Shown here piece by piece: positions 11,751-64,000 of a stretch of DNA of 64,000 nucleotides. Each line of letters begins with the position of its first letter. The stretch's first letter is position 1. Source of the DNA: Alphaproteobacteria bacterium (lineage in GTDB: Bacteria > Pseudomonadota > Alphaproteobacteria > MPNO01); contig OZ219866.1 of NCBI GenBank assembly GCA_964291675.2, positions 1,632,001-1,696,000 of the forward strand, in the 5' to 3' direction. The translations under genes were made by a program, and so were the position numbers. Below the pieces are notes generated by a model. The model was not told the origin of the DNA, did no database searches, and was given only the letters and a program-made list of their open reading frames with translations.

Positions 11751-12764
11751 CTAGGAGATGGCCGCGGCCTGGGTATCGGGTATGTCGGTCTCGTCGTAGC
11801 GGATGTCGCGGAACGCGCCCGAGGCGACCGGGCGGTAGAGCGGCGGCCTGGCCGCGTCGGTGCAGCTCGGCAGGCAGGCGATCTCCGCGTCGTAGTTGGG
11901 CTGGTGGAAGAAGCCGATCGAGATGCGCCGCGCGCTCGGCCCGATCGCGGCCGGCGGGTTGACCACGCGGTGAAAGTTCGAGGTCCAGACGTCGTTGGTC
12001 CAGCGCCGGAACAGATCGCCGACATTGACCACGAACACGTCGGGCCGGGTCTCCACGTCGTACCAGCGCCCGTCGCGGTCCTGCACCTGGAGACCGCCCG
12101 GCTCGTCCTCGCCCATCAATATGGTGAAGGTGCCGAAATCGGTATGCGCGCCGGCGCGGATCTGGCCCTCCGGCGGGGCGACCGGCTGCGGCGGGTAGTG
12201 GTTGATCCGCATGGCGGTAACGTGACGGTCGATCTTGTCCTCGAACCAGCCCTCTTCGAGGTCGAGCGCGAGCGCGGCAAGCCGCATCAGATGGCCGACC
12301 AGCGCCTCCATCGCCGCGTAGTAGGCGCAAGCGGCATGGCGGAAGGCGGCCGGGCGGTCGGGCCAGATATTGGCGATGAAATAGCGCTGCCCCTCCTCGC
12401 CGGTGTAGTAGGGGTCATCCGGCCAGGACTCCCTGCCGAAGTGGTAGAACTCCTTGAGGTCGGGCGGCGCCGCCCGGCCGGCGGCGCGGCCGAGCGCCTC
12501 GCCCTCATAGACCCGGAGCCCCCTCGGCGTGCCGGCCACGGGGTGGACGCATTCGCGCTTCTCCGCATCCGGCAGGGCGAAGTATTCGTGCGAGGTGCGG
12601 CGCAGATCCTGGACGATCCCGGCGTCCACGCCGTGGCCGGAGATCGAGAAGAAGCCGATATCGGCGCAGGCCGCGCCGATCGCCTTGCCGACCCGGCGGC
12701 GCTCCGCTTCGCCGCCGCCGAAATAGGGTTCGATGTCGATCAGCGGCACGCGTGCGCTGCTCAT
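11751..12764 (-). CDS. Isopenicillin N synthase-family 2OG-Fe(II) oxygenase
   Basis: VPLIDI, PDLKE, HTDFG (HxD), FHRVVNP, RISIG (RxS). Confidence 0.92.
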   Translation of the reverse strand: MSSARVPLIDIEPYFGGGEAERRRVGKAIGAACADIGFFSISGHGVDAGIVQDLRRTSHEYFALPDAEKRECVHPVAGTPRGLRVYEGEALGRAAGRAAPPDLKEFYHFGRESWPDDPYYTGEEGQRYFIANIWPDRPAAFRHAACAYYAAMEALVGHLMRLAALALDLEEGWFEDKIDRHVTAMRINHYPPQPVAPPEGQIRAGAHTDFGTFTILMGEDEPGGLQVQDRDGRWYDVETRPDVFVVNVGDLFRRWTNDVWTSNFHRVVNPPAAIGPSARRISIGFFHQPNYDAEIACLPSCTDAARPPLYRPVASGAFRDIRYDETDIPDTQAAAIS

Positions 12765-12913
12765 CGGTCGCTCCTGCTCGCCTCGATTGCCTGTCCGGGC
12801 GCAGGATGCCTCGCGGGCCGGCCCAGGGGAAGACCCCGCTTTACAGCCCCGCTTTACAGCGATGCGGCCGGTCGCGAGACTGCGGCGATCTTCGAACGAT
12901 CGGGAGGGTTGCG

Positions 12914-15235
12914 ATGAAGTTCGGCGTCGGACAGCCGGTTTCGCGCACGGAGGACCCGCGCTTTCTCAAGGGCGAGGGCCGCTATGTCGACGACATCGCC
13001 CTGCCCGGCGAGGTGCACGGATACGTGCTGCGCTCGCCGCACGCGGCTGCCCGCATCCGCTCGCTCGACGTGGAGGACGCGCGCCGCGCGCCCGGCGTCG
13101 TCCTGGTGCTGACCCGGGAAGATGTCGAGGCCGAGGGGGTCGACGGCATCCCGCACTTCATCCCGCCGATGGCGTTCGGCGCCCCGCCGCCCAGATTCAG
13201 CCCGCTGCACCCGGTGCTCGCCGGCGACCGGGTGCGCCATGTCGGCACGCCGGTCGCCTTCGTGGTGGCCGAGACGCTGGACCGGGCGATGGACGCGGCG
13301 GAGACCGTCGCGGTCGATTACGAGATCCTGCCCTCGGTGACCGCGCCGGGGCGGGCGACCGCCGAAGGCGCGCCGGCGGTGTGGGACGAGGCGCCGGACA
13401 ATATCTGGTTCACCGTCGAGCGCGGCGACCGGGCGGCGACCGATGCCGCCTTCGCGCGCGCCGCGCATGTGACGCGGCTCAGCCTCTCGAACAACCGGCT
13501 GAGCTGCAATGCGATGGAGCCGCGGGCGACGATCGTCGAGTACCGGCCCGCCACCGACCACGTGACCATGTACACCGAGAACCAGTCGCCGCACGCCCAG
13601 CGCAGCCATCTCTCGCACGTGTTCCACAAGCCGGAGGGGAATTTCCGGGTGATCAGCCCGGATGTCGGCGGCGGGTTCGGGATGAAGAACGCGGTCTATC
13701 CCGAGGACGCGCTCTGCGTGATCGCCGCAAGACGGCTCGGACGCCCGGTGCGCTGGACCGCCGACCGGACCGAGAGCCTACAGAGCGACGCCCATGCGCG
13801 GGACGCGGTGACCGAGGCCGCGCTGGCGCTCGACGCGGAGGGAAACTTCCTCGCGCTGCGCGCCGAGACCGACCACGCGGTCGGCGCCTATCTCGGCGAG
13901 GCGGGCTGCGTGCCGGTCGGGCTGGGCTCGACCATGTATGCCGGCAACTACGACCTGCCGGCCGCCTGGCTCTCGGTCAACGCGGTGTTCACCAACACCA
14001 ACACGGTGGCGCCCTATCGCGGCGCCGGCCGGCCGGAGGCCTGCTACATCGTCGAGCGGCTGGTCGACCAGGCGGCGGTCGAGCTCGGCATCGACCCGGT
14101 CGAGCTCCGGCGGCGCAACTACATCAAGCCCGCCGACATGCCCTACCAGAACGCGATCATGACGGTCTACGACACCGGCGAGTTCGAGAGGATCGCCGAC
14201 AGCGCGGTGGCGCTCGCCGACCGCGACGGCTTCGCCACCCGAAAGGCGGCATCCGCGGCGGCGGGAAGGCTGCGCGGTCTCGGCGTCACCTATTTCATCG
14301 AGATCGGCGCGCCGTTCAACGACCGCATGCAGCTCTATTTCGACCCGGCGGGCGGGGTCACGATCGCCGCCGGCACGCACAGCCACGGCCAGGGCCACCA
14401 GACGGTCTACGCGCAGATGGTATCGGACTGGCTCGGCGTCGAGTTCGACAGCATCCGCCTGGTGCAGGGCGACACCGACCAGGTGGCCTACGGGCGGGGC
14501 ACCTACGGCTCGCGCTCGGTCACCGTCGGCGGGGCGGCGCTCAAGGACGCGGCCGACCAGGTGATCGCCAAGGCGAAGCGCATGGCCGCCCATCTGATGG
14601 AGGCGGCGGAGGCCGATATCGAGTTCGCGGACGGAAGCTTCACCGTCGCCGGCACCGACAAGTCGATCGGCATCGTCGACATCGCCCGGGCGTCGTTCAT
14701 GCCGGTCGGCTGGCCCGAGGCGTTCGGCATCGGGCTGGAGGCGACCGGCAGCTTCACGCCGACCAACGGCAACTTCCCCAATGGCTGCCACATCTGCGAG
14801 GTCGAGGTGGATCCCGAGACCGGAAGGGTCGAGCTTGTGCGCTACTCGGCGGTCAACGATTCGGGGCTGATCGTCAACCCGCTACTGTTCGAGGGCCAGG
14901 TGCATGGCGGGCTCGCCCAGGGCATCGGCCAGGTGCTGCTCGAGCACGTCGTCTATGACGAGGAGTCGGGCCAGCTCCAGTCCGGCTCCTTCATGGATTA
15001 CTGCATGCCGCGCGCCGACGACCTGCCGTCCTTCGTGCTCGACGATGTCGAGGTCTACTGCGAGACCAACCCGCTCGGGGTCAAGGGCGCGGGCGAGACC
15101 GGAACCGTCGCCGCGCTGCCCGCGGTGATGCACGCCATCCTCGATGCGCTGCGCCCGCTCGGCGTCTCCGACCTCCAGATGCCGGCCACGCCGCAATCCG
15201 TCTGGCAGGCGATCCGCGACGCGCGGGCGGCGTAG
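12914..15235 (+). CDS. Xanthine dehydrogenase-family molybdopterin-binding large subunit (CoxL form II-like)
   Basis: RTEDPRFLKGEGRYVDD, GGGFGMK, PYRGAGRPEA, HGQGHQT, GVKGAGE. Confidence 0.93.
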   Translation: MKFGVGQPVSRTEDPRFLKGEGRYVDDIALPGEVHGYVLRSPHAAARIRSLDVEDARRAPGVVLVLTREDVEAEGVDGIPHFIPPMAFGAPPPRFSPLHPVLAGDRVRHVGTPVAFVVAETLDRAMDAAETVAVDYEILPSVTAPGRATAEGAPAVWDEAPDNIWFTVERGDRAATDAAFARAAHVTRLSLSNNRLSCNAMEPRATIVEYRPATDHVTMYTENQSPHAQRSHLSHVFHKPEGNFRVISPDVGGGFGMKNAVYPEDALCVIAARRLGRPVRWTADRTESLQSDAHARDAVTEAALALDAEGNFLALRAETDHAVGAYLGEAGCVPVGLGSTMYAGNYDLPAAWLSVNAVFTNTNTVAPYRGAGRPEACYIVERLVDQAAVELGIDPVELRRRNYIKPADMPYQNAIMTVYDTGEFERIADSAVALADRDGFATRKAASAAAGRLRGLGVTYFIEIGAPFNDRMQLYFDPAGGVTIAAGTHSHGQGHQTVYAQMVSDWLGVEFDSIRLVQGDTDQVAYGRGTYGSRSVTVGGAALKDAADQVIAKAKRMAAHLMEAAEADIEFADGSFTVAGTDKSIGIVDIARASFMPVGWPEAFGIGLEATGSFTPTNGNFPNGCHICEVEVDPETGRVELVRYSAVNDSGLIVNPLLFEGQVHGGLAQGIGQVLLEHVVYDEESGQLQSGSFMDYCMPRADDLPSFVLDDVEVYCETNPLGVKGAGETGTVAALPAVMHAILDALRPLGVSDLQMPATPQSVWQAIRDARAA

Positions 15236-15244
15236 GGGTGGGCC

Positions 15245-15351
15245 GTCCTTCGATACGCGGCTTCGCCGCTACTCAGGATGAGGCGGGAGGCGCAGGCGCC
15301 GATAAACCACCCCTCATCCCGAGTAGGCGCGAAGCGCCGTATCGAGGGACG
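15245..15351. repeat. REPIN-like element family A, copy 5
   Basis: GTCCTTCGATACGCGGCTTCGCCGCTACTCAGGATGAGG ... CCTCATCCCGAGTAGGCGCGAAGCGCCGTATCGAGGGAC. Confidence 0.88.
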
Positions 15352-15391
15352 CGCCGCGACGGTTCCATCTGACGCGGATACGCTCTAGGAA

Positions 15392-16678
15392 ATGCGCATG
15401 CCAGTCGAACCCCTCCTCCCAGTCGCGCTCGGCAACGGCCGTGTGCATTACGCGCCGGGGATGCGCGCGGGCCCGTGGGTGTTCGCGAGCGGCCACATGG
15501 CGCAGGATTACGGGAACGGCATCGCCGCCTCGGTGCTGCGCGAAGCCGCGCCCAACGCCGCCGGCCCCAGATCCGCCCGCGAGGCGTCGCGCGTGTTCGA
15601 CAATGTCGAGGCGGTGCTCGCCGCCGGCGGGTCCGCGCTCGACCGCGTCGTGCGCACCGACCAGTACTACACCACCGTCGCCATGGTGCCGCCCTACCAG
15701 GCCGAGCGGCGGCGGCGCTTCGGCGCGCTGATCCCGCCCAGCACGTCGATCGTCCAGCACGGGCTGCTGCTGCCGGGCGCCGCGCTCGACCTCCAGGCGA
15801 TCGCAGTCGCCGCCGACGGCCCGCCGGTCGAGCATATCGACCACGATACCCTGAGCGGCCAGCCGAGCTCGGGCTACTCGGCGGCGCTCACGGCGGGGGA
15901 TTTGGTCTTCGTGCCGGGCAACACGGCAACGGCGGTCGCGGGCGAGGAGGCGCGCAACGGTGTCGCCGCCGATGCCCTGATCAGAGAGGGCCAGCTCTGG
16001 GGCGGTGAGCGGCTGAGGCTGGAGGCCGGGTTCATCGTCGAGCGCCGGCTGTTGCCCTCGCTCGACCTCGCGGGGCTCCGCCCCGAGGATGTCGTCAAGG
16101 CGCAGATCTACCTCACCGATCCGGCGGACTGCGCGGTCGTCCAGGACGTCTGGGCGGAGCATTTCGGCGCCGGCGCCGCGCTGTCGGTCGTCCCCTGCGC
16201 GCCGCGCGGGCTGGTGATCGAGGACGGCAAGATCGAGATCAACATCCTCGCCCACCGGGGCGGCGCGGCGGCCAAGACGGTCGTCGAAGCGGGTACGGCG
16301 CCGACCTTTGCCCGCCAGGCGGAGGCGGTCCGCTGCGGCGACCTTCTGTTCCTGTCGGCGCTGATGGCGGCGGATGGGGACGGGAGGCTGGTCGCGCCCG
16401 ATCCGCGCCAGCCCCATTTCTGCGAGCCCGCGGGCGAGGAGGCCGACGCGATATTGGAGACCGCCGCGCGGATCTGCGCAGCGGCCGGCGCGTCGCTGGA
16501 GAACGTCGTGAGGGTCCAGCAGTTCCACACCGACATCGCCGGCTTCTACCCCGTGCACCAGGCCTGGCAGCGCCGCCTTCCGGACCGGCCGATCCCGTTC
16601 TCGGCGATCGAGGTTCCGGGGCCTCTTCCCGTGCCCGGCTGTTCGGTGATGATGGATCTCTGGGTCTACGCACCCTGA
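15392..16678 (+). CDS. Protein with three tandem Rid (YjgF/YER057c/UK114) domains
   Basis: Three ~130-aa repeats: RAGPWVFASG..LAAGGSALDRVVR; TAGDLVFVPG..AGLRPEDVVKAQIYL; RCGDLLFLSA..AGASLENVVRV. Confidence 0.82.
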   Translation: MRMPVEPLLPVALGNGRVHYAPGMRAGPWVFASGHMAQDYGNGIAASVLREAAPNAAGPRSAREASRVFDNVEAVLAAGGSALDRVVRTDQYYTTVAMVPPYQAERRRRFGALIPPSTSIVQHGLLLPGAALDLQAIAVAADGPPVEHIDHDTLSGQPSSGYSAALTAGDLVFVPGNTATAVAGEEARNGVAADALIREGQLWGGERLRLEAGFIVERRLLPSLDLAGLRPEDVVKAQIYLTDPADCAVVQDVWAEHFGAGAALSVVPCAPRGLVIEDGKIEINILAHRGGAAAKTVVEAGTAPTFARQAEAVRCGDLLFLSALMAADGDGRLVAPDPRQPHFCEPAGEEADAILETAARICAAAGASLENVVRVQQFHTDIAGFYPVHQAWQRRLPDRPIPFSAIEVPGPLPVPGCSVMMDLWVYAP

Positions 16679-16696: not shown

Positions 16697-17617
16697 ATGC
16701 GCCTCGCCGTACCGGATCTGATCTCGAACTCCTACTTCCCGTCGATCTCCGCGGTCGAGCTCGGCGACTTCGCCGAACAGGGGCTCGACGTGAGCCACGA
16801 GCTGATCTTCCCCGTCGACAAGTGCTACCGGGCGCTGCGCGACGGCGAGGTCGACCTGATCGGCGGCTCGGCGCATGCGGTGCTCTCCGCCTTCCCGCGC
16901 TGGGAGGGGGCGAAGATGCTCTGTTCGCTCTCCCGGGGGATGTACTGGTTCCTCGTCATGCGCGCCGACGAGGGCCATGCGCGCGGCGACCTCGGCGCCG
17001 TCAGGGGGAAGAAGATAGGCGCCGCGCCCTGGGTCGATATCGGCCTCAAGCGGATGCTGCGGGAGGGCGGGATCGACATCGAGCGCGACGGGGTCGACAT
17101 CGCGCCGGTGCCGGGGACGACCGGACCCCGCGTGAGCTTCGGGGTGACGGCGGCCAGGGCGCTGGAGGACGGGCTGCTTGACGGGTTCTGGGCCAACGGC
17201 ATGGGCGCCGAGATCGCGGTCACAAGGGGCGTCGGGACCGTGGTGGCCGACGTGCGCCGGGGCGACGGCCCGAAACCCGCCTTCAACTACACCCAGCCGG
17301 TGCTGGTCGCGACCGAACGACTGGTCGCCGAGCGCCCCGGCGACGCCGCCGCCGCGGTGCGCGCCATCGTCTCCACCCAGCGGAAGCTCAAGCAGGATGT
17401 CGGCCGCGCGACGGCGATCGGCGAGAAGCTGTTCGCGCCGGACGAGGCGAAGCTGATCGCCCGGGTGGTCGAACGCGACCTGCCGTTCTACGACCCGGCG
17501 ATCGCCGAAGGCTTCGTCGACGGCATGATCGCGTTCGCCCGCGACATGGGCATCCTCGACCGCGCCGTTCCCTACGAGAGCGTGGTCGCGACCGAGTTCA
17601 GCGAGCTCTGGGCTTGA
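16697..17617 (+). CDS. NMT1/THI5/SsuA-like binding-protein-fold protein without signal peptide
   Basis: AVELGDFAEQGLDV, ALRDGEVD, VRGKKIG pattern of the class II PBP fold; begins directly with a beta strand. Confidence 0.8.
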   Translation: MRLAVPDLISNSYFPSISAVELGDFAEQGLDVSHELIFPVDKCYRALRDGEVDLIGGSAHAVLSAFPRWEGAKMLCSLSRGMYWFLVMRADEGHARGDLGAVRGKKIGAAPWVDIGLKRMLREGGIDIERDGVDIAPVPGTTGPRVSFGVTAARALEDGLLDGFWANGMGAEIAVTRGVGTVVADVRRGDGPKPAFNYTQPVLVATERLVAERPGDAAAAVRAIVSTQRKLKQDVGRATAIGEKLFAPDEAKLIARVVERDLPFYDPAIAEGFVDGMIAFARDMGILDRAVPYESVVATEFSELWA

Positions 17618-17618
17618 G

Positions 17619-18245
17619 CTACTTCACCGGCGAGTAGTCCGCGGCGAAGCAGATCTTGCATTCCTGGGTCAGGATCGGGTCCGGCCCGCCGCTTACGTTC
17701 TTGGGCGGCCAGATGCCTTTCTCCCTCGCCTCCTCGCGCACCTCGCGGCGGTGCTCCAGGCTCTCATAGCCCCAGATGTGGACGAACTTGTTGAGCGCGC
17801 CGCATTCGGTGACCATCGCCATGACCAGCGGCGACATCTCGACCCGTTTCTCGATGGCCGTCGACCAGTTCTCGACCAGCGCCGGCTGTCCGTCGGAGCG
17901 CATCGTGTATTCGCGCCACTCGAAGACCGGTCCGAGATCGCCGCTCGCCATCGTCGGGGTGAAGGGCAGCGGGGCGAAGATCTCCGACTGCATGGTCTCG
18001 ATCACGTGCGAGACCTTGGGCGGCCAGTTGGGGTCCTTGGCGGCTTCGACGCGGATCCGCTCGCGCTCGCCCATGTCGGCATAGGGCCAGATGTGGATGA
18101 CCTGGTTGAGCGGCCCGATCTCGGTATAGAGCATCGCGCTGATCTGCGAGTGTTCGCTGCGCGTCTCGTAGCCATCCGCGAAGAGCCGAAGGAATTCCGG
18201 CACCTTGCCGCGCGCGATTCGGTAGCTCCTGGCTTCGTAGATCAT
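17619..18245 (-). CDS. NIPSNAP family protein (two domains)
   Basis: MIYEARSY..TEIGPLNQVIHIWPY, and second repeat VFEWREY..TECGALNKFVHIWGY..YSPVK. Confidence 0.92.
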   Translation of the reverse strand: MIYEARSYRIARGKVPEFLRLFADGYETRSEHSQISAMLYTEIGPLNQVIHIWPYADMGERERIRVEAAKDPNWPPKVSHVIETMQSEIFAPLPFTPTMASGDLGPVFEWREYTMRSDGQPALVENWSTAIEKRVEMSPLVMAMVTECGALNKFVHIWGYESLEHRREVREEAREKGIWPPKNVSGGPDPILTQECKICFAADYSPVK

Positions 18246-53883: not shown

Positions 53884-55301
53884 AGCGCCACCGGGTCGAT
53901 CTCTGCGTCATCGGGGCCGGCTCGGGCGGGCTCAGCGTCGCCGCCGGCGCCTCCCAGATGGGCGCTTCGGTGGTGCTTGTCGAGCGCGACCGGATGGGCG
54001 GGGATTGCCTCAATGTCGGCTGCGTGCCGTCCAAGGCGCTGATCGCCGCCGCCGGTGCGGCCGAGGCCGCCCGCGGCGCCGGGAGGTTCGGCGTCCGCCT
54101 GGCGGCGCCCGAGATCGATTTCGCCGCGGTCCACCGACACGTTCACGGCGTGATCGCGGCGATCGCGCCGCACGATTCGGTGGAGCGCTTCGAGGCGCTC
54201 GGCGTCACCGTCATCCAGGAGCACGGCCGGTTCACCGGACCGCGGAGCGTGGTCGCCGGCGAGCACGAGATCGAGGCGCGGCGCTTCGTCATCGCCACCG
54301 GCTCGCGTCCCGCCGCGCCGCCGATCCCGGGGCTGGAGGACGTTTCCTATCTGACCAACGAGACGGTGTTCGAGCGCACCCGCCTGCCGTCTCCCCTGAT
54401 CGTCATAGGCGGCGGTCCGATCGGTCTGGAGCTCGCCCAGGCGCACCGCCGGCTCGGCGCCGAGGTCACCGTGCTGGAGATGTTTGCAGCACTCGGCAAG
54501 GACGACCCGGAGCTCGCCGGGATCGTCACCGCACGACTGCGCCGGGAAGGCGTGGTCCTGCGCGAAGGGGTGGGGGTCAGCCGCGTCTCCGCTGCCGGGG
54601 ACGGGGTCGCCGTGGAAATCGAAGACGGCGGGCGCGTCGAGAAACTGATCGCCGCCGAACTGCTGGTCGCGGCGGGTCGGCGGCCGAATATCGACGACCT
54701 CGGACTGGAGGACGCGGGGATCGAGCGAAACCGGTCGGGCGTCGTGGTGGACGACAGGCTGAGGACCACCAACCGGCGGGTGTTCGTCGCGGGCGATGCG
54801 GCGGGCAAGCTCCAGTTCACCCATGTCGCCGCCTACCACGCCGGCATCATCATCCGTAACGCGCTGTTTCGCATTCCGGCACGGGTCGACGACCGCGCCG
54901 TTCCCTGGGTCACCTATACCGACCCGGAGCTCGCGCATGTCGGGATGACCGAGGCGGTCGCTCGCGAGCGCGCGGGCGATATCCGCGTGCTGCGGTTTCC
55001 GTTCGCCGAGAACGACCGCGCCTGGGCGGAGCGCGCCACCGAAGGCTTCGTCAAGGTGATCGCCTCCAGGAAGGGCAAGGTGCTCGGGGCAAGCATCGTC
55101 GGCGCCCATGCCGGCGAGCTGATCCAGACCTGGATCCTGCCGGTCGCGCAAGGGATGAACATCAAGCACGTTGCGGGGCTGATCTTGCCCTATCCGACGC
55201 TGGGCGAGGCCAACAAGCGGGCGGCGGGTTCGTACTTCGCGCCCACCCTGTTCGGCCCGCGGGTCCGGCGCGCCGTCCGTCTGCTCGCCCGCCTGGGATG
55301 A
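53880..55301 (+). CDS. Class I pyridine nucleotide-disulfide oxidoreductase (Lpd/MerA-like, neither)
   Basis: GAGSGG, GGDCLNVGCVPSK, GGGPIGLE, FTHVA, PYPTLGE; GTGA overlap with the TVP38 gene. Confidence 0.9.
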   Translation: MKRHRVDLCVIGAGSGGLSVAAGASQMGASVVLVERDRMGGDCLNVGCVPSKALIAAAGAAEAARGAGRFGVRLAAPEIDFAAVHRHVHGVIAAIAPHDSVERFEALGVTVIQEHGRFTGPRSVVAGEHEIEARRFVIATGSRPAAPPIPGLEDVSYLTNETVFERTRLPSPLIVIGGGPIGLELAQAHRRLGAEVTVLEMFAALGKDDPELAGIVTARLRREGVVLREGVGVSRVSAAGDGVAVEIEDGGRVEKLIAAELLVAAGRRPNIDDLGLEDAGIERNRSGVVVDDRLRTTNRRVFVAGDAAGKLQFTHVAAYHAGIIIRNALFRIPARVDDRAVPWVTYTDPELAHVGMTEAVARERAGDIRVLRFPFAENDRAWAERATEGFVKVIASRKGKVLGASIVGAHAGELIQTWILPVAQGMNIKHVAGLILPYPTLGEANKRAAGSYFAPTLFGPRVRRAVRLLARLG

Positions 55302-55457: not shown

Positions 55458-56864
55458 ATGATGCCCACCCCCAAAGGTGGAGGCGCAAGGCTCGCGATGG
55501 GGCTGTCGGCGCGTTTGCTCGTGTTGACGATCTTCTTCGTGATGCTGAGCGAATTCCTGATCTATGCGCCTTCGATCGGCCGCTACCGTCTGGTCTACAT
55601 GCAGGAACGGATCGCGGCCGCCCATCTCGCCTCGATGGCGGCGGGCGCCCCGGTAAGCGGCACCCTGTCCCAGCGGTTCACCACGGAACTGCTCGACCGC
55701 GCTCGCTCGCGGCGCATCGTCGTCCGCGGCGCGTCCGACGCGGTGACGCTCGCCGGCGCCGCGCCGCTTGCGGTCGAGGCCGTGTACGATCTGCGGGAGG
55801 CGGCGTTCTTCCCCCTCATCTGGGAGGCGTTCCTCATCCTCGGGCGGGGCAGGAACCGGACGATCGAGGTGGTCGCTCCGTCTTCCAAGTCGCCCGACAT
55901 CCTGATCAGAACGGCGATCGACGAAGCGCCGATGCGAATGGAAATGTTCGACTACTCGGAGCGGATCCTGGCGCTCTCCATCATCATTTCGCTGATCACC
56001 GCGACGCTGGTCTATATCAGCCTCCAGCTTCTCTTCGTCCGCCCGATGCTCGGCATCACCGAGAGCATGATCGCCTTCCGTGCCGATCCGGAGGACGCGA
56101 GGCGCGTTGTCACGCCCGGCTCGCGGTCGGACGAGCTCGGGCGTGCCCGGCGCGAGCTGGCGGCGATGCAGGGCGCGTTGCGGCAGGCGCTGCGGCAGCG
56201 CTCGCGCCTTGCCGCGCTCGGCACCGCAGTTGCCAAGATCAATCACGACCTCCGCAACATACTGGCGAGCGCCCAGCTTGTGTCGGACCATATCCGCGTC
56301 AGCCCCGACCCCGGGGTGCGCAAGATCGCGCCGACGCTGCTCGGCGCGCTCGACCGGGCGATCAAGCTGTGCGGCGAGACCGTTGCCTTCGCGCATGAAG
56401 GCGACGTGCCGCCCTCCTATTCCCATTTCGATCTTCGCGCGCTGGTGTCGGAGGTCGGCACGGATCTGGCCGAGAGCAAACCGCCCGGCGCCGACTTCGC
56501 CTGCCACGTGCCGCGGGACCTCACCGTCGGCGCCGACCGCGAGCAGCTCCGCCGCGCGCTCACCAACCTCACGCTGAACTCCTTTCAGGCAAGAGCGGGG
56601 ATCGTGGGGATCGATGCCCGCCAGAGCGACGGCTCGGTTCTGATCACCGTGGCGGATGACGGTCCCGGCCTGTCCGAAGCGGTCCGCGAGCACCTGTTCG
56701 AGCCCTTCTCGGGATCGGGCCGGGCCGGCGGCACCGGGCTGGGGCTGTCGATCGCGCGCGACCTCATGCGCGGCCACGGGGGCGACATCCGCCTGGTCGA
56801 GACCGGCGAGGCCGGCACCGTCTTCGAGATCGAGCTGCCCGCGGAGACGTCCGCGCCACGCTGA
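55458..56864 (+). CDS. Membrane sensor histidine kinase (orphan)
   Basis: Two TMs, HAMP (SDELG), H-box INHDLRNIL, DDGPG, FEPF, GTGLGL. Alternative start at 55497. Confidence 0.92.
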   Translation: MMPTPKGGGARLAMGLSARLLVLTIFFVMLSEFLIYAPSIGRYRLVYMQERIAAAHLASMAAGAPVSGTLSQRFTTELLDRARSRRIVVRGASDAVTLAGAAPLAVEAVYDLREAAFFPLIWEAFLILGRGRNRTIEVVAPSSKSPDILIRTAIDEAPMRMEMFDYSERILALSIIISLITATLVYISLQLLFVRPMLGITESMIAFRADPEDARRVVTPGSRSDELGRARRELAAMQGALRQALRQRSRLAALGTAVAKINHDLRNILASAQLVSDHIRVSPDPGVRKIAPTLLGALDRAIKLCGETVAFAHEGDVPPSYSHFDLRALVSEVGTDLAESKPPGADFACHVPRDLTVGADREQLRRALTNLTLNSFQARAGIVGIDARQSDGSVLITVADDGPGLSEAVREHLFEPFSGSGRAGGTGLGLSIARDLMRGHGGDIRLVETGEAGTVFEIELPAETSAPR

Positions 56865-56968: not shown

Positions 56969-58243
56969 CTAACAGCCGAGACCCCGAGACATTTGGGCAT
57001 AGCTGGTGAGAGGGACCCCGCACATCCGATCCCGGTCCGATTTGTCGATGACGGGCCGGCTCATCAGTTCGAACATTTCGTCGAACTTGCGGAGCGCGGC
57101 GCAGCCCACCGCCTCGGGGTCGGCCGCGCTGCGGTGTCGGGGCCAGACACGATCGCGGGCGTGGCGCCAGAATTCGCTGTCGTACACCGAGCCGCAGGAA
57201 TAGTGCCAACCGACGAACAGGCCGTAGCAGAGTACATTGTCGACGAGAAATCGATTGACCACCGGCGCGTCGCGCTCGAGGTGCTCGATTCGACGGTTGA
57301 GACGCGTGTTGAGGACCATCCCGATCTGCAGCTGGGCGGACACGATCGCGGTTGCTTCGAGCGGCTCCATGAAGGCCGCTGCGTTGCCGATGCGAGCCAC
57401 AGCACCGTCATATATCTGGCGATGCACGAAATTCGGAAACGGAATGACCGAACGTTGTTCGAATTCCGATACGCCCTCGCTGTCGAGGAACGCATCGAAG
57501 TCCAATTCGACGTCATCGAGGCGGGATATATTGCGGTTGAAGATGTACCCGTAGGATGTGTGAACCGTGAGCGGAATGACGAAAATCCAGCCGTGGGGTC
57601 GGGCAACCGCACGGGTATAGGTGTGTTCGAGCGCCGGCCCGTCCTGCCGTTCTCTCATTATTGAGGGACAGCGGCGGATGACGGCCGTATCGGTCGGGAT
57701 GAAAGAAATATCGATATGCCGGTCGGGATCGGGTCTTCCGGGAAATCCCCTGGCATCGAAGACCAGATCGTAATGTTCCGGCGTCCGGCCCTCCAATTCC
57801 ACCAGCGCGCCGCCCTCCACTCGGGTGATATTGAGCACTTTCGCGTCGATGCGGCGTGCGCGCGTGCACTCGCGCAGCAGGGCTTCCATCAGATCGGCGG
57901 ACAGGTGGTAGGCGTAAGAAACGTGTTGCGGCGTGAAGTAGTGGGTGAAGTCCCGAGTGCGTCGGCCCCATCCCTCGAACGCAACACCGTATTTGCGCGT
58001 TCCGTTCAAGCGTTGCTGGACGGTTTCATGGGGCAGATCCGTCAGCTGCTGCAATTGCCGGACCAGGCTCGGCCAACTCCCTTCGCCCACCCCGATGACC
58101 GGAATGCGCGAGTCGTAGATGTGGTGCAGCTCGTGGTCGCTGTCCGGGTGAAGCCGGCTTACGCTGGCGGCCGCCAGGGATCCCGCGGTGCCTCGCCCGA
58201 CGACCGCGATCTTCCGTAGCGATTCACTGCCCGGCTGTATCAT
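56969..58243 (-). CDS. srpI: Flavin-dependent tryptophan-halogenase-family enzyme; probable peptidyl-Trp brominase (SrpI-like)
   Basis: GRGTAG FAD motif, IGVGEG, catalytic-Lys region GTRKYGVAF, GWIFVIPL (WxWxIP variant), GNAAAFMEPLEATAI; 424 aa; near a Trp-terminated precursor. Symbol by resemblance only. Confidence 0.82.
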   Translation of the reverse strand: MIQPGSESLRKIAVVGRGTAGSLAAASVSRLHPDSDHELHHIYDSRIPVIGVGEGSWPSLVRQLQQLTDLPHETVQQRLNGTRKYGVAFEGWGRRTRDFTHYFTPQHVSYAYHLSADLMEALLRECTRARRIDAKVLNITRVEGGALVELEGRTPEHYDLVFDARGFPGRPDPDRHIDISFIPTDTAVIRRCPSIMRERQDGPALEHTYTRAVARPHGWIFVIPLTVHTSYGYIFNRNISRLDDVELDFDAFLDSEGVSEFEQRSVIPFPNFVHRQIYDGAVARIGNAAAFMEPLEATAIVSAQLQIGMVLNTRLNRRIEHLERDAPVVNRFLVDNVLCYGLFVGWHYSCGSVYDSEFWRHARDRVWPRHRSAADPEAVGCAALRKFDEMFELMSRPVIDKSDRDRMCGVPLTSYAQMSRGLGC

Positions 58244-58393
58244 GCCACATGACTCCCGCCGGGACGGTCCGTCATCCCGCGCTGGAACGCCCATGTACAC
58301 CGTGGACGCAACAGGCTACCACATCGCCGGCGCCGTCGCCCGTTCTCACCGCGCCGACAGCCTGTCCCGGCGAGGTCGGCCGGCGAAGCTCCG

Positions 58394-59281
58394 TCAGCGT
58401 GCGCGCAGAAGTGCGGATCGGGTGAACTGACTGTCGTCGAGACCGGTGCGGAACCGAAAATCGGTCCACTTCAGCACCGTGCTCGCACCGGTCAGGTGAT
58501 TTACCATCTTCTGTTCTTCCGCCCTCCAGTAGCGGTCCAGATATTGCCGGTAGTTCGCGAGAGTTAGCGTCTTCAGGTGCGAGCCCCTCCGGTCGTACAG
58601 GTCCATTCTCCAGGTTCGCAGCTCGCCCGTGTCCTGCCAGACCACCTTGCGGCTGTATCCGGACCTCTTGTCCAGGGGAACCTGCTCGATAACCGTGCAC
58701 GTGAGTTCGCCGCAGGGCTCGTCACGCAGATACTTGTAGGCGTATTCCTCGACCTCCGGAGAGCTCATGTCCTCGTATGAAAACTCGCTTCCCATGAAAG
58801 ACCCCGAACGCCGCGCGGCGCTGATGCGCTTCACCCTTTTCAGGGCGGGCAGATACAGCCACTGGTCGTCCGGGGTGTTGATGTGGGCGTGGGTCAAGAG
58901 GGCGGTTCCCCGCACGTGTCGCGGCTGATCGAACACGAACAGGCTCTTGTCGCCATCTCCCGGCACCTCGAGCACGTTGAAACGCATCTGGCGGACGCTC
59001 TCCCGACCCTGCCGGTCGCGCAGCACCATCGTCATTCCAGCGGTGAAATCCCGGAAGCCGTCGTTGCGGGCGCTGGCTTCGCGCGCAAGCCGCAGACCCT
59101 TCTCCTCCGGCGTTTCCGCCAGCGCAATGACATCTGCACCCGGCGAACAGAAGCAAGCCAGCGCGAAGACCAGCGCACCGAGGAACGCCCGTCGTACGTG
59201 TGGAATGCCCTTCGCCCTGCCTCGGTCCTCAAGCGCTTTCCTGACGAATTCGTGATCTCCGCACATCCACACAGGTCCCAT
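58394..59281 (-). CDS. Outer-membrane lipoprotein-sorting (LolA-like) protein
   Basis: FDQPRHVRGTALL, DDQWLYLPALKRVKRI, SFMGSEFSYEDM. Start uncertain. Confidence 0.85.
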   Translation of the reverse strand: MGPVWMCGDHEFVRKALEDRGRAKGIPHVRRAFLGALVFALACFCSPGADVIALAETPEEKGLRLAREASARNDGFRDFTAGMTMVLRDRQGRESVRQMRFNVLEVPGDGDKSLFVFDQPRHVRGTALLTHAHINTPDDQWLYLPALKRVKRISAARRSGSFMGSEFSYEDMSSPEVEEYAYKYLRDEPCGELTCTVIEQVPLDKRSGYSRKVVWQDTGELRTWRMDLYDRRGSHLKTLTLANYRQYLDRYWRAEEQKMVNHLTGASTVLKWTDFRFRTGLDDSQFTRSALLRAR

Positions 59282-59756
59282 GATCGCAAAAGGACATTGT
59301 ACTTTGATTCCCGCAAACGGGAGAAGTCAAAGCTTGACTGGCAATCCCGTCGGTGGGACACGAGACGGCCAAGCCCGTTCCGCGCCGAAAAGAGATCGAC
59401 TGTAGACCCCCGAACGCGAGCCCGCCCCGTCATGTTGGCCGCGCGCCTCACGACGCAGCGGCGCCGAGCGCGAAAGAACGCGCCGTTCCCGCCGGGGCTA
59501 CGCACGCGTTGCGCGCCCTCTGCCTCTCCAACAAATCGGAACGGCACTTGGCGAGGCAAGAGATTTAATCTCCCTGCCTCAAGTCTTTTTGCAGCCTTCC
59601 GTTTCATGCCTCGCGTGCGCAACAAAGAATATAGGATCGGCTCTCCAAGCAACAAAAGTCTAATTGCTCGCTGACTTGACCTTGCGACGCCACCGTGTTA
59701 GCCCTATCTCTCGACATGTCGGCGTAGCTGTGCGTGCAAAGCAAAGGAGGATTGCC

Positions 59757-60008
59757 ATGAGAAGTGGCGATGAGATGCTGCAACAGATTGTTGAGAAATC
59801 CGCCATGGACGCGGGTTTCAGGCAACAGCTTCTCGAAGACCCCAAGACTACCATCAGCGAAGAATTGGGCATCACCATTCCCGATTCGATGACCATCAAG
59901 GTCCATGAGAGCGACATGCAGACGGTGCATCTCGCCTTGCCGCCGGATCCGAACATCACCGAGGAGCAGCTCGAAGCCATCTCGGCCGGTCTTTGCTGCT
60001 GCTGGTAA
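59757..60008 (+). CDS. srpE: NHLP-leader (proteusin) RiPP precursor, core LCCCW (SrpE-like)
   Basis: AAGGAGG RBS; leader KSAMDAGFRQQLLEDPK...HLALP, then ITEEQLEAISAG (double-Gly-type site) followed by LCCCW*. Symbol by resemblance. Confidence 0.93.
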   Translation: MRSGDEMLQQIVEKSAMDAGFRQQLLEDPKTTISEELGITIPDSMTIKVHESDMQTVHLALPPDPNITEEQLEAISAGLCCCW

Positions 60009-60082
60009 AGCCGATCGCCTGCGAGCATGCGATCGGGACGCGGAACGAGGCCGATCCGCGATCTCGCGTCGCCCGAACTGAC

Positions 60083-60110
60083 CCACCCGACTCCGACCGG
60101 AGTCGGGTGG
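60083..60110. terminator. Hairpin between convergent genes (possible terminator)
   Basis: 12-bp stem CCACCCGACTCC/GGAGTCGGGTGG with GACC loop. Confidence 0.6.
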
Positions 60111-60139
60111 CTGTTCTGGCACGTCGATACGGGCCGACA

Positions 60140-61258
60140 TTACTGGGGGACCGCTCCGGAGAGCACCATGAACACGTAGGCCTTGGCTCTTCGGAGCCGA
60201 TTTTCGGAGATCACCAGTTTGATGTGGTGGATGCCCCGTAGCAGTACATAGCGCCCGGACTTCGCAAACAGCGTCGTCGGTTTTGCGACCCAGTCGGCAA
60301 GCGCCGTGAGCTTCTGCGGAACGACAAATTCCTCATGGCTCATCGCTTCCAAGAGCGGATCCCAATCGGTCGGGCCGTCGAGCCAATAGCGTGGATCTTT
60401 CGTGTATCTCTGCTTGACGATGAATGTAAGGCCCAGCGTCGGGCCCACCCCGTCTTCGCGCACGTCAATGTTCGCTCCGGTCCTGACAATATTCACGCGT
60501 TTCCTGAATCGTTCGATTACCGAGTGGACGGCCGAGATCTGGCCCGGCCAGCCCGTATCTTCGAGATATGAACATATGTCCTTCCGCGATTTGAAGCCCA
60601 TGACGGCCAGGCGGATCGCTCGCGAGCGAGAGGGGAATACGCCGAACGAATCCATGCGGGTATCTTCCGGCTGAGCCAGGTAAACCCTTTCGACGTTCTG
60701 CCGCTCGGCAGGGGTCGTCTCCCAGCCCACGCAGGCAAGGAGCGCGTCGACCACCATCGCCGCATCGGTCTCCTGACGGCGGGCGCCGACAATCGCGCGT
60801 TCCCCGGGCCGCAGGAACATCGCCGGAAGGGAAATTTCATCCTGCCGCGCAGAGCCGATGTCGTATTCCAGCATCAACTTGCGGCCGACGATGTCACGCA
60901 GGGGCGAAACTTCGGTGTCCATCCGTTCGAACAGCCGCACGATCGCTTTCGCGGTCTCATCGGTCCGGTCGGTCCGCGCGCGTTCCTCAAAAAACGTCGC
61001 CGTCCTGGTTCCGCTCGCCAGCGAGGCCCCGAAATCCGCCTCCGGACTGCGCGCGTGCAGCGGCAGTTCGAAGCCGAACGGAAGAGCGCCCATCGTGATC
61101 GGAAGTCTTCCGGCGCATTCGAGCACCCGCTGCCATTCCGGATCTCCGATGAGGTTTGGTGAAATCCTGTTGCGAAAGTGCCCGAGCAGGTCGCCCATGG
61201 TGCCGCCTTCTTCGGCCAGGCGGTCCTGGGTGAGCGTGATTGCCTTGTCGATGTCCAT
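60140..61258 (-). CDS. Uncharacterised 372-aa RiPP-cluster protein
   Basis: Starts 9 bp after the YcaO stop with a purine-rich RBS; globular; motifs FGFELPL, MLEYD, HHIKLV...AKAYV. Confidence 0.8.
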   Translation of the reverse strand: MDIDKAITLTQDRLAEEGGTMGDLLGHFRNRISPNLIGDPEWQRVLECAGRLPITMGALPFGFELPLHARSPEADFGASLASGTRTATFFEERARTDRTDETAKAIVRLFERMDTEVSPLRDIVGRKLMLEYDIGSARQDEISLPAMFLRPGERAIVGARRQETDAAMVVDALLACVGWETTPAERQNVERVYLAQPEDTRMDSFGVFPSRSRAIRLAVMGFKSRKDICSYLEDTGWPGQISAVHSVIERFRKRVNIVRTGANIDVREDGVGPTLGLTFIVKQRYTKDPRYWLDGPTDWDPLLEAMSHEEFVVPQKLTALADWVAKPTTLFAKSGRYVLLRGIHHIKLVISENRLRRAKAYVFMVLSGAVPQ

Positions 61259-61267
61259 ATTCCCCCC

Positions 61268-63586
61268 TCACGCCACGACGGGTGCGGGATTGAGGTCGGC
61301 TTCGGCGAGAGGACGCTTGCGCCGGCCCATGCCGACGGGCACGTCGTACAGGCGCCCGGGCGCGAATCTCGCCCAAAAATGGCGCATGCCCGGCACGATC
61401 ACCCGCGCCACGGGCATGCCGATATCGGGCCGGGTCTGATCCAGCACCAGGAACTCCATGCCCCTGGCTTCGACGAGCGCGCGGCAGGTCTCCACGTCTT
61501 CCCGCGTGTCCGTCGACTCGATCACCGGATACTGCGAAGCCTTGCCGGGCGGGCTGTCTTCGGCCGGCGCCAGCCATGGGCATTCGGCGAGACGAGCGGT
61601 GTTCCACCACCAGAGCGCCAGCGGATCGTCGATCATCGGTCGGCCGTCGCCCCTCGCGGGACGTGGCAACCAGGTGAGGCACTGGTTCAATTCGCAGATC
61701 GCCCGCAGGGCCGCTATGCGCGGGTCGGCGTGGGCCCCGGCGCCGTAGATGATGTCCTCGGTTTCGGCGTTCGGTCGGCGCGAGAGCGCCACGAATGTCG
61801 GGATGCCGATGTCTGAGGTTGCATCCAGCATCCACAGGTCCCGTTCGCGCCGGGCGTAGTACTCCGGCGCCGATCCGAGGTACTCGTCGTCGAAACCGGG
61901 AAGATCGACCGCCGGGAGCCGCAGCCGGTTGTACCACCAGATGGCGAACGCATCGCGTTCCGCCAGCTCGTAGAAGCCTTGCAGGATGGCTTCTTCCAAC
62001 GTGTTGCCCGCCGCGCAGCCATTGGAGTCGGCGATCAGGTCGGTAGGGCCGCGCAGCTCGCCGGGCATGCTGTACAGCATCGACGTCGGCAGATAGCGAT
62101 GCCGCTGCTGCGTCAGCGACCACACCGGCGTCCAGTCGATTTCGGCGTCCGGGTCGAAACGCCGCGGCACGACATTGTAGGGGTGGCCTCTCGCGTTGAT
62201 GCTCTTCGCGTTGTCGAGCTGACGGTCGCTGAACAGCTGCGCGTCGTTCGGATGGATGGCCTCGTCCCCGACGGCGAGCTCGACGAACCGCTTGCGGATG
62301 CGGATCTCGTCTCCGTGGCGAGCGCCGGAATGGCGCTCCACCGCCTCGCAGAGCGCGCTGACCCTGGATTGCTCCGATGTGCTGCCCTTGCCGGCGCTGT
62401 TGCTGCGCAGGCTGCGCCTGAGCGAGCTCAGGCTCCGGCTTCTGGCACCGAGATTGCTTCCGGCCCAATGGACGTGCAGCCAGGCGTCGGTCTCGTCCGT
62501 GGTGCGCGTGAGCCAGGTTACGACACCGCTGACCGGGCTCACCAAATGGCGGTATTTGGCCAGGGTGACTTCCGGCGCAACCGAGCGCGCGCCGCCGCTG
62601 TTGCGATGGGTCTTGGGGCTCGTTTCAAGCCTCAACGGAACCGGCGCTCGATCCGGCCGATGCAACGCTTCGTCGCCACAGGCAAGGCATTGCGGCCGGC
62701 GCATAACCCGATGATGCGACGTCGCGAATGTGCCGGTATTCATCGCGATCGCGTGCTCGTGAATCGCGGCCGCCTCTTCCAGCACCAGCCACTTGACGAT
62801 CTCCGCCGCGATCAGCCCGTACAGCGCGTCCAGCAATGCGGGCTGAGACGCGAACGGCCTGAAGGCGGCCTCCTCGCCGGCAAGGTTGCGCAGAAAACCG
62901 TGGACTTCCTGATGGCTGCGCAGGCGGTGCGCCAGGCAGTCCCAGCAAGGCCCCCGATCGCCCGCGCGAAAGATCGGGCCGAACAACGACTCCATGCCGC
63001 GCGGCCGCACCAGCGTCCATGGCACTCTCGTCTCGATCCGGCGCCGGTTCTCGTCCGCGAGGCGCGCTTCGAGGTAATCTTCGCAGACGATGACCGTGAG
63101 TTCGGGACCGGCAGCCGCCACGCTGGCGCCGCTGTCCGCCAGATGCCGGGACAGGCTTCCGTCGTCGCCCTCGACCGCCACGCGCGCTTCCGCCAGACGT
63201 CGTTCGACCCAGCGCGGCGATGCACCGAGCGACGACCAGTAGGCCGCCCGGCATCGGTCCATGCCATGATCGGCCGAGACGACGTAGCCCTTGGCCGAGA
63301 GCGCAGCGATGGCGGCGAGAACATCGGCCGCGGGATGGGCGTCCTGGAGGGAAGCGACGATCTCGTCCAGCCTGTGCCGACCGTCGAGCAGCGGCAGCAG
63401 ATCACGATTCAGCGCTCCGTGGAGCAGGGTGTTGAACGATTCGGAGACCAGAAGGGTCTGCTGTTCGCCGATATCGTGCACTTGAAAATGGGGGACCAGG
63501 GCGGGAAGCTGGACGAGGCCCTGGTCCTCCGGGGTCGCTTTGGTCAATATCCCCGGTCGGGGAGTCCGGGCGGTTTGAGTCGTCAT
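61268..63586 (-). CDS. srpC: Fused leader-binding/E1-like + YcaO cyclodehydratase (SrpC-like)
   Basis: GPCWDCL and RRPQCLACG (E1-like Zn sites), SAGKG, ALCEAVER, SNGCAAG..EEAILQGFYELAERDA, C-terminal LNPAP (PxP of azoline-forming YcaO). Symbol by resemblance. Confidence 0.92.
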   Translation of the reverse strand: MTTQTARTPRPGILTKATPEDQGLVQLPALVPHFQVHDIGEQQTLLVSESFNTLLHGALNRDLLPLLDGRHRLDEIVASLQDAHPAADVLAAIAALSAKGYVVSADHGMDRCRAAYWSSLGASPRWVERRLAEARVAVEGDDGSLSRHLADSGASVAAAGPELTVIVCEDYLEARLADENRRRIETRVPWTLVRPRGMESLFGPIFRAGDRGPCWDCLAHRLRSHQEVHGFLRNLAGEEAAFRPFASQPALLDALYGLIAAEIVKWLVLEEAAAIHEHAIAMNTGTFATSHHRVMRRPQCLACGDEALHRPDRAPVPLRLETSPKTHRNSGGARSVAPEVTLAKYRHLVSPVSGVVTWLTRTTDETDAWLHVHWAGSNLGARSRSLSSLRRSLRSNSAGKGSTSEQSRVSALCEAVERHSGARHGDEIRIRKRFVELAVGDEAIHPNDAQLFSDRQLDNAKSINARGHPYNVVPRRFDPDAEIDWTPVWSLTQQRHRYLPTSMLYSMPGELRGPTDLIADSNGCAAGNTLEEAILQGFYELAERDAFAIWWYNRLRLPAVDLPGFDDEYLGSAPEYYARRERDLWMLDATSDIGIPTFVALSRRPNAETEDIIYGAGAHADPRIAALRAICELNQCLTWLPRPARGDGRPMIDDPLALWWWNTARLAECPWLAPAEDSPPGKASQYPVIESTDTREDVETCRALVEARGMEFLVLDQTRPDIGMPVARVIVPGMRHFWARFAPGRLYDVPVGMGRRKRPLAEADLNPAPVVA

Positions 63587-63618: not shown

Positions 63619-64000
63619 TCAGCCGCGCGAAGGCAGCGCATCGACATGGGCGGCGGCGCGGGCCGCGGTCTCGGCGACCGCCGATTTGAGCGCATCGAAA
63701 TTCTCGTGTCCGCAAGCGTTCGCGACGAGGGATTTCACCTTCGGTCTTGCCGCGGTCGCATCAAATCCTTCCTCACCGGCGAGGCGCGTGACGCCCTGCA
63801 AGTCCCGCCACATGGCCGCGGCTTCCGCCAGCGGCGCGGCACCGGCGGCCTCGAACACCGCCGCGGCGGTCGGAGCCGGATCGTCGAGGTCGGGACCGGC
63901 ACTCGTCAGCTGCAGGAAGCGCGCGGCCCTCTCGACCTCTTCCAGCCCGCCGCGCATGCGGGCATAGGCGAACACGCCCGTTTCGACGGGATCCGGCAGT
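63619..64000 (-). CDS. Partial ORF (3' end) with a degenerate GlnE-like helical C-terminal domain
   Basis: Frame is open to the window edge; RGGLEEVERAARFLQL..MWRDLQGVTRL..ACGHENFDAL resembles the GlnE C-terminus (GGLxDIEF..QYLQL). Confidence 0.55.
   Translation of the reverse strand, partial: LPDPVETGVFAYARMRGGLEEVERAARFLQLTSAGPDLDDPAPTAAAVFEAAGAAPLAEAAAMWRDLQGVTRLAGEEGFDATAARPKVKSLVANACGHENFDALKSAVAETAARAAAHVDALPSRG

Follow-up and report, generated by a model that had tools for sequence, protein, structure and literature searches.

The srp-type precursor and its core enzymes

The srp clusters ('sponge-derived RiPP proteusin'; RiPP, a peptide made by the ribosome and modified after translation) are the closest described relatives of the locus considered here. 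According to the accessible portions of the published work, the precursor SrpE ends in the five-residue core LCCCW, the three cysteines of which are converted to thiazolines by the YcaO enzyme SrpC (PMC10858898, PMC10286304), and SrpI is a leader-dependent, bromide-only Trp-6 halogenase that acts on the C-terminal tryptophan and does not accept free tryptophan as a substrate (PMC10286304). SrpI has a catalytic Lys84 and a leader-binding loop, P105-Q106-Q107-V108-S109, within the surface loop 104-110, while residues 66-72 of SrpE, NLTEEQL, form the halogenase-binding motif, in which the change Leu67Ala reduced bromination in vitro (PMC10858898). The structure of SrpI is known only as a homology model. 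In sponge metatranscriptomes, the precursor gene is 252 bp long and its core is LCCCW, with ITEEQL as the consensus of 191 sequences that come from several phyla, and horizontal spread of srp was concluded; of the biosynthetic clusters in sponge microbiomes, the same work counts srp with those that are shared most widely and transcribed most strongly, and it calls the product cryptic and its role elusive (bioRxiv 10.1101/2023.06.09.544420). Here, we analyse a stretch of 64,000 nucleotides from an alphaproteobacterial genome (contig OZ219866.1, positions 1,632,001 to 1,696,000 of the forward strand; hereafter the window), which carries a precursor, a YcaO enzyme and a halogenase of this kind. 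The best overall explanation, in which we have high confidence, is that an srp-type biosynthetic gene cluster lies here, with its left half inside the window.

An earlier note on this DNA had proposed a precursor, a YcaO enzyme and a Trp-halogenase-family enzyme, and open reading frames (ORFs) together with family matches place all three where the note had put them (Table 1); its right-hand boundary, 63586, is exactly the ATG of the YcaO gene, with the stop-to-stop ORF reaching 63715. From its ATG, the 252-bp precursor gene encodes a leader of 78 amino acids (aa) ending ...NITEEQLEAISAG (EAISAG), followed by LCCCW and a stop. The 83-aa product matches the NCBIfam family TIGR03793, 'NHLP leader peptide family RiPP precursor' (NHLP, nitrile-hydratase-like leader peptide), at 71.0 bits (cut-off 50.9; E 5.5e-20), its closest solved structure is the NHLP MprE7 (8tb1, E 5.7e-10), and its residues 66-72 read NITEEQL. 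For comparison, we used the best 80 of 319 contig stretches, one genome per species, that contain a relative of the halogenase, ranked by the halogenase (79-93% identity), and counted each further gene at an identity of at least 60% within 10 kb on either side of it. A close precursor (84-95% identity) is found in 35 of these 80 loci and has the core LCCCW in all 35; in 30 of them the last 18 residues are identical to those of the window's precursor, and 33 have Ile at leader position 67.

The YcaO gene matches the SagD-family cyclodehydratases of thiazole/oxazole-modified microcins (TOMM; TIGR03604, 274.4 bits against a cut-off of 219.25) and the leader-binding E1-like domain TIGR03882 (135.6 bits against a cut-off of 36.9). 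It also has a Pfam YcaO domain (E 1.8e-97) and an N-terminal winged helix resembling a RiPP recognition element (RRE; PF21084, E 4.1e-07), and it occurs in 37 of the 80 loci. The earlier note had spoken of PxP-tailed YcaO enzymes as forming thiazolines from Cys, and the azoline-forming families are indeed matched above their cut-offs; the C-terminus, ...LNPAPVVA, carries PxP and not the full PxPxP. In the halogenase, we find the GxGxxG motif (GRGTAG) at residue 16, Lys84, PQHVS at residues 105-109 and EPLEAT at 293. Of the 8000 candidates scored, 1107 are relatives at E<=0.001, and the 120 listed are 80-93% identical to it and almost all 423-424 aa long. Lys84 is conserved in all 80 loci, and the loop reads PQQVS in 70 of them. 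SrpI has no PDB entry; the best match there to a solved halogenase goes no further than E 1.1e-23. The published core, enzymes and residue numbering bear out the comparison, made in the earlier note, with the srp cluster of SrpE (LCCCW), SrpC and the brominase SrpI, and its expectation that the core chemistry was probably not new holds, the srp system being already published.

Several points weigh against so close an identification. The assignment was made from published descriptions of SrpE, SrpC and SrpI and from the residue numbering of SrpE and SrpI. The window's loop form, PQHVS, in which His replaces Gln107 of SrpI, is seen in none of the 80 related loci. The precursor has Ile where the studied SrpE has Leu67, though Ile is the natural majority form. 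Finally, 28 of the 80 loci (for example, L002:8667-9935 on the + strand) have a conserved 423-aa gene placed between the halogenase and LolA-like genes; the window has no such gene in the corresponding interval, 58243 to 58394, and the nearest relative, L001, also lacks it. This 423-aa gene has no match in Pfam or NCBIfam.

Table 1. Positions in the window of the cluster genes, with the evidence for each
Feature	Position	Strand	Basis
SrpI-type flavin-dependent Trp halogenase (predicted peptidyl Trp-6 brominase), 424 aa from ATG	56969-58243	-	Pfam Trp_halogenase, E 2.9e-43
LolA-like periplasmic lipid/lipoprotein-carrier-fold protein, 295-aa ORF	58394-59281	-	Pfam LolA_like PF17131, E 1.1e-58
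SrpE-type proteusin (NHLP) precursor, 83 aa	59757-60008	+	TIGR03793; leader of 78 aa and core LCCCW
372-aa protein with predicted ABBA (PT-barrel) aromatic prenyltransferase fold	60140-61258	-	Structure model; no Pfam or NCBIfam match
SrpC-type fused E1-like/YcaO azoline-forming cyclodehydratase, 772 aa	61268-63586	-	YcaO, TIGR03604, TIGR03882, PF21084
3' end of 798-aa AlkB+GlnE-like fusion gene, cut at the window end	63619-64000	-	tblastn with the L018 homologue

Between the divergent LolA-like and precursor genes lies a gap of 475 bp (window 59282-59756). A scan of 59200-60200 for the consensus forms of sigma-70 promoters and intrinsic terminators, and for those forms only, found neither.

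Conserved neighbouring genes

The LolA-like gene, the 372-aa gene and the continuation of the cluster beyond base 64000 had been overlooked in the earlier note. The cluster extends about 12 kb past the window end, and its order on the - strand follows directly in the window's own genome: the AlkB+GlnE-like fusion, a protein that joins an NHLP domain to a toroid (NHLP-toroid), an NHLM ABC partner, a C39 peptidase/ABC exporter, an HlyD-like stub and an MMPL/HAE3 pump. In what follows, L088 is the next 15 kb of this genome past base 64000, and L001, L002 and so on are related loci. In related loci, the genes seen in the window keep their order at 70-95% identity; the gene set is not a product of chance.

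The 372-aa gene starts 9 nt after the YcaO stop, and, measured between their alignment ends, the two are 12 nt apart in 20 of the 21 loci compared. It is present in 35 of the 80 loci, and in 31 of the 35 with a close precursor. The protein has no match in Pfam or NCBIfam, and a scan of protein-cluster representatives returned 552 relatives at E<=0.001. An AlphaFold2 model based on an alignment of 87 relatives (pLDDT 95.6, pTM 0.93) consists of repeated helix-helix-strand-strand units. Foldseek gave 61 matches in the PDB at E<=0.001, and every match listed is an aromatic prenyltransferase (TM 0.39-0.55), namely EpzP, NphB/Orf2, TleC, AmbP1, PatF, DMATS, CloQ, LimF, PagF and CymD; leads from a language-model atlas likewise pointed to the prenyltransferase fold. 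Because the model, the Foldseek matches and the atlas leads agree, we regard the predicted ABBA prenyltransferase fold as settled; the activity of the protein, its donor and its acceptor are inferred. At least 90% of the 87 members share D75, D133, R211, R216, K316, H345, K347 and Y361, all of which are present in the window's copy. Most of them lie on predicted strands. With the described ABBA aromatic and indole prenyltransferases (MpnD, TleC, DMATS, CymD, IptA) and those of RiPP pathways (PagF, LimF, PatF), the protein shares the fold at 6-13% identity. A predicted complex of the ABBA-fold protein with the precursor reached a median score of 0.28, set against a mark of 0.32, and weighs neither for nor against an interaction.

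The NHLP-toroid protein, of 433 aa, joins an N-terminal NHLP domain to a C-terminal alpha/alpha toroid through a Pro-rich linker. The fusion forms one continuous frame in 42 loci (68-77% identity) and is counted in 47 of the 80. Its relatives in the protein collection number 1067; among the 120 listed, those that bear a name go by 'hypothetical protein' or 'nitrile hydratase subunit alpha'. Foldseek matched the putative cyclase at E 1.3e-07, and a profile of the cyclase domain matches drimenol synthase at E 1.9e-05; a single-sequence search of the PDB with this domain gave nothing useful, drimenol synthase being found by the profile search only. The motif D209-L-D211-S-T is invariant in 33 of 33 sequences and aligns with D-L-D-T-T of drimenol synthase (the DxD(D/T/S)T motif), D211 falls on the position that the entry 9m7d lists as mutated (D333N), and a QW-like motif, Q-x-x-D-G-S-W, is also invariant in all 33. 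The protein thus appears to share the toroid fold of MstE, the drimenyl diphosphate and drimenol synthases and squalene-hopene cyclase, from which it differs by its N-terminal nitrile-hydratase-like leader domain. Literature searches on such a combination found no described case of an NHLP-leader-fused class II cyclase.

It is conceivable, though in our view unlikely, that this NHLP domain is a secretion leader, in which case the C39 exporter would cut after the conserved ...RTG and the cyclase would be exported to the periplasm, to act on the exported prenyl-peptide there, alongside the LolA-like protein and the MMPL pump. The domain does match TIGR03793 and keeps the ...LPP...EA..G layout, with an invariant Gly78 followed by the Pro-rich linker, and the exporter genes lie directly beside the cyclase gene. 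Class II cyclases, moreover, need no cofactor. However, the domain scores 42.8 bits (E 3.5e-11), below the family cut-off of 50.9; at -4, -7 and -12, where the SrpE leader has the hydrophobic residues Ile, Leu and Ile, the cyclase has Ala, Arg and Phe, with Thr at -2; and a folded cargo of 355 aa would be unusual for this kind of exporter.

The ORF at the window end could be taken for a housekeeping GlnE that marks the edge of the cluster. This candidate was rejected, as the ORF is the C-terminus of a conserved cluster gene: the L018 homologue, used as a tblastn query, aligns with window 63993-63625 at 79% identity, and the whole gene (G000:C2:1695619-1698015; L088 3619-6015) encodes 798 aa and is found in 34 of the 80 loci. 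Residues 46-369 match alkane 1-monooxygenase (8f6t, E 2.5e-45), and the protein matches Pfam FA_desaturase (E 2.4e-28), with a weak match to GlnE. By its sequence, it is predicted to combine an AlkB-type membrane diiron alkane hydroxylase domain with a GlnE-like nucleotidyltransferase domain. A paralogue of 36% identity with an 832-aa frame (G000:C2:686400-688703; L086) lies elsewhere on the same contig, so the fusion belongs to a wider family.

The remaining genes concern export and the envelope. The remark in the earlier note that such leaders are cut by C39 peptidases finds its counterpart in an NHLM-type C39 peptidase/ABC exporter (peptidase-containing ABC transporter, PCAT; 736 aa, G000:C2:1702442-1704652), encoded 6.4 kb past the window end (Pfam Peptidase_C39, E 3.1e-33). 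Compared with the NHLM bacteriocin export system, the PCAT reaches the cut-off of TIGR03796 with 853.3 bits, whereas the ABC partner stays below that of its best match, TIGR03797 (674.2 bits against 709.4), and the HlyD-like adaptor is a 241-aa stub that covers only positions 6-56 of the 421-position HlyD-type model (TIGR03794, E 3.3e-04). The stub is present in 29 of the 80 loci and the MMPL gene in 16. The LolA-like gene, present in 37, matches PF17131 with 198.4 bits against a cut-off of 30; its true start is probably later than the ORF start, ahead of a signal-like hydrophobic stretch.

Two of the related loci carry a second set of such genes. Beside the halogenase of L008 lies a second NHLP precursor (11898-12203, + strand) that ends ...EEQLEAISAG and then has a different core, WCCCGQ; its downstream neighbours at 12412-14862, 14382-15725 and 16811-17959 are an MMPL pump, an S-adenosylmethionine methyltransferase and a 49%-identical ABBA-fold paralogue, and the set looks like a variant srp-like pathway. 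Directly after the halogenase of L035 (L035:12027-20874) lies a second, diverged set with an HlyD-like protein of 291 aa, a PCAT (63%), an ABC partner (57%), an AlkB+GlnE fusion (50%) and an ABBA-fold protein (39%), with no YcaO between the last two. Both variants are consistent with an association of the ABBA-fold family with Trp-bearing CCC cores.

Proposed pathway and mature product

We propose a pathway whose steps differ in their footing. (i) Core modification, by orthology with srp, each step being shown in print for the orthologues. The 83-aa precursor would be bound via its nitrile-hydratase-like leader; the fused E1-like/YcaO enzyme would convert the three cysteines of LCCCW to thiazolines in an ATP-dependent reaction with the loss of three H2O; and the halogenase would dock onto the N-x-TEEQL helix just before the core and brominate C6 of the C-terminal Trp. 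(ii) Cleavage and export, from family membership. Together with its ABC partner and the short HlyD-like adaptor, the C39 peptidase/ABC exporter would cleave after ...ISAG and export the five-residue product. (iii) Further tailoring, suggested by folds and gene order. The ABBA-fold protein would prenylate the peptide, most likely on the indole; the NHLP-fused class II cyclase and the AlkB hydroxylase may cyclise, by acid catalysis, and oxidise the isoprenoid; and the LolA-like protein and the MMPL pump may carry the hydrophobic product in the envelope.

The product proposed in the earlier note, Leu-(thiazoline)3-halo-Trp, matches srp in its core chemistry and is probably incomplete. Since the conserved neighbours have prenyltransferase, class II cyclase and AlkB folds, the mature product is probably more than Leu-(thiazoline)3-bromoTrp, and possibly a prenylated, cyclised terpenoid peptide. 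That the srp product is a peptide-terpenoid hybrid, and not the bare brominated tris-thiazoline pentapeptide, is a possibility that we put forward tentatively. It is quite possible instead, if short of probable, that the product is only Leu-(thiazoline)3-6-bromoTrp, and that the ABBA-fold, cyclase-like and AlkB-like genes are inactive relics in the manner of PatF, have a role in immunity or regulation, or produce a separate lipid that goes out through the same exporter.

A number of observations speak for the simpler product and against the hybrid. The tailoring steps are proposed from fold and gene order. A profile of 87 ABBA-family sequences searched against the PDB gave one chance-level row, that is, no sequence-level match to solved prenyltransferases. 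The model of the cyclase is of middling confidence (pLDDT 70.2), with the toroid helices well placed. PatF, one of the structural matches to the 372-aa protein, is an ABBA-fold protein of a RiPP pathway and is inactive. The accessible papers on srp and srp-like clusters, the founding 2021 paper and the supplements not being among them, link no prenylation to srp, and one of them has the word only in the title of a reference. In published experiments, as far as their accessible portions go, SrpC and SrpI sufficed to modify SrpE (PMC10858898, PMC10286304).

The conservation of these genes, however, argues for a function. The ABBA-fold, cyclase and AlkB genes are kept at 68-80% identity across phyla, the same as the halogenase and YcaO genes, and the ABBA-fold gene holds its fixed short distance from the YcaO gene in 20 of the 21 loci. 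The D-L-D-S-T and QW-like motifs of the cyclase do not vary among its 33 sequences, and the eight residues conserved in the diverse ABBA family comprise two Asp, two Arg, two Lys, one His and one Tyr. Relics would not be kept to this degree.

Were the product a peptide-terpenoid hybrid, srp would be the first case of a class II terpene cyclase in a RiPP pathway, and its cyclase the first case of an enzyme with an NHLP leader domain fused to it; such a product may also explain the absence of reports of the bare pentapeptide from sponge extracts. The useful part of the present analysis is the re-annotation of conserved genes as encoding a prenyltransferase fold, a leader-fused class II cyclase, an AlkB hydroxylase and lipid-handling export proteins, each as predicted above. 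Such a re-annotation turns the question of the mature product into a concrete experiment with predicted masses, namely an [M+H]+ of 651.09 for the brominated tris-thiazoline product and an increment of 68.06 per isoprene unit.

Genomic setting, spread and described systems

In this Defluviicoccus-like alphaproteobacterium, the cluster forms an island of about 19 kb that is poorer in GC than its surroundings, with a GC content of 0.64 in the cluster (0.552 in the precursor gene, the lowest in the cluster), 0.631 in the MMPL gene and 0.695 in the rest of the window. In the closest locus, L001 (titled Defluviicoccus sp.), all five genes are 88-95% identical, the halogenase 93% and the flanking histidine kinase 92%. 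The kinase (468 aa, window 55458-56864, + strand) forms the left flank of the island and is seemingly not a member of the cluster; the ORF beside it (53900-55301, + strand) resembles, by eye only, a pyridine-nucleotide disulfide oxidoreductase and also seems to lie outside. Of the 11 other species in the genus, 7 have the halogenase, which was found in none of eight genomes from five other genera of the family (completeness 64-100%). By their titles, the best 80 loci belong to Alpha-, Gamma- and Deltaproteobacteria, Binatia, Acidobacteriota, Gemmatimonadota, Latescibacterota, Nitrospinota and Thermodesulfobacteriota, among other groups, and one of them is titled with a sponge genus. The lower GC of the island and the identity of about 80% across phyla fit horizontal spread of the srp cluster. 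Among public sequencing runs, 20 from 12 studies contain words of the query sequence, two of them half or more; no RNA run is among those listed, which has no bearing on expression.

A rival reading takes the cluster for an inactive or mis-assembled passenger, the result of a chimeric bin or of decaying genes. The assembly comprises two contigs with an estimated contamination of 6.67%, the GC of the cluster is 5 points below that of its surroundings, and one search row flagged a TGA within the PCAT match. Yet the independent assembly L001 and three more alphaproteobacterial loci (L003, L007, L025) share the junction at which the kinase adjoins the halogenase, so the junction is real, and the recurrence of the halogenase in the same genus points in the same direction. 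All cluster genes are open frames of the usual family lengths. The 736-aa PCAT frame is open and scores its 853.3 bits end to end, the flagged TGA lying upstream of the start in a stop-to-stop query. We therefore consider such a passenger very improbable.

Among other described systems, the MppC/MppI lanthipeptide pair (PMC12715784, PMC11791876), compared by description only, shares the idea of a leader-dependent Trp brominase and Trp prenylation on a long structured leader: MppC is a leader-dependent Trp geranyltransferase. Unlike the window's cluster, that pathway has a Nif11-type leader, makes a lanthipeptide and is without a YcaO. The mpr proteusin system of a methanotroph (MprE1-10, the YcaO MprC and the azoline oxidase MprD) shares NHLP precursors with an L(X)4L motif and an RRE-bearing YcaO, and the MprE7 leader supports SrpI activity (PMC10286304). 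It differs in having an azoline oxidase and many longer cores (PMC10286304), and Pfam and NCBIfam scans showed no azoline oxidase gene in the window's cluster; MprC, as described, rejects the SrpE leader.

With srp itself (Nguyen et al., J Am Chem Soc 2021, as relayed by later papers), the locus shares the core LCCCW, the 83-aa NHLP precursor with N-x-TEEQL at 66-72, the fused YcaO, the 424-aa halogenase with Lys84 and the 104-110 loop, and the identity of about 80% across phyla. It is set apart by the two substitutions at Gln107 of SrpI and Leu67 of SrpE and, relative to the 80 related loci, by lacking the 423-aa gene and having the MMPL pump. Since the window fits the published srp system in every testable feature and the close precursors all end in LCCCW, the core finding is already known, and the window adds one more copy of a published system.

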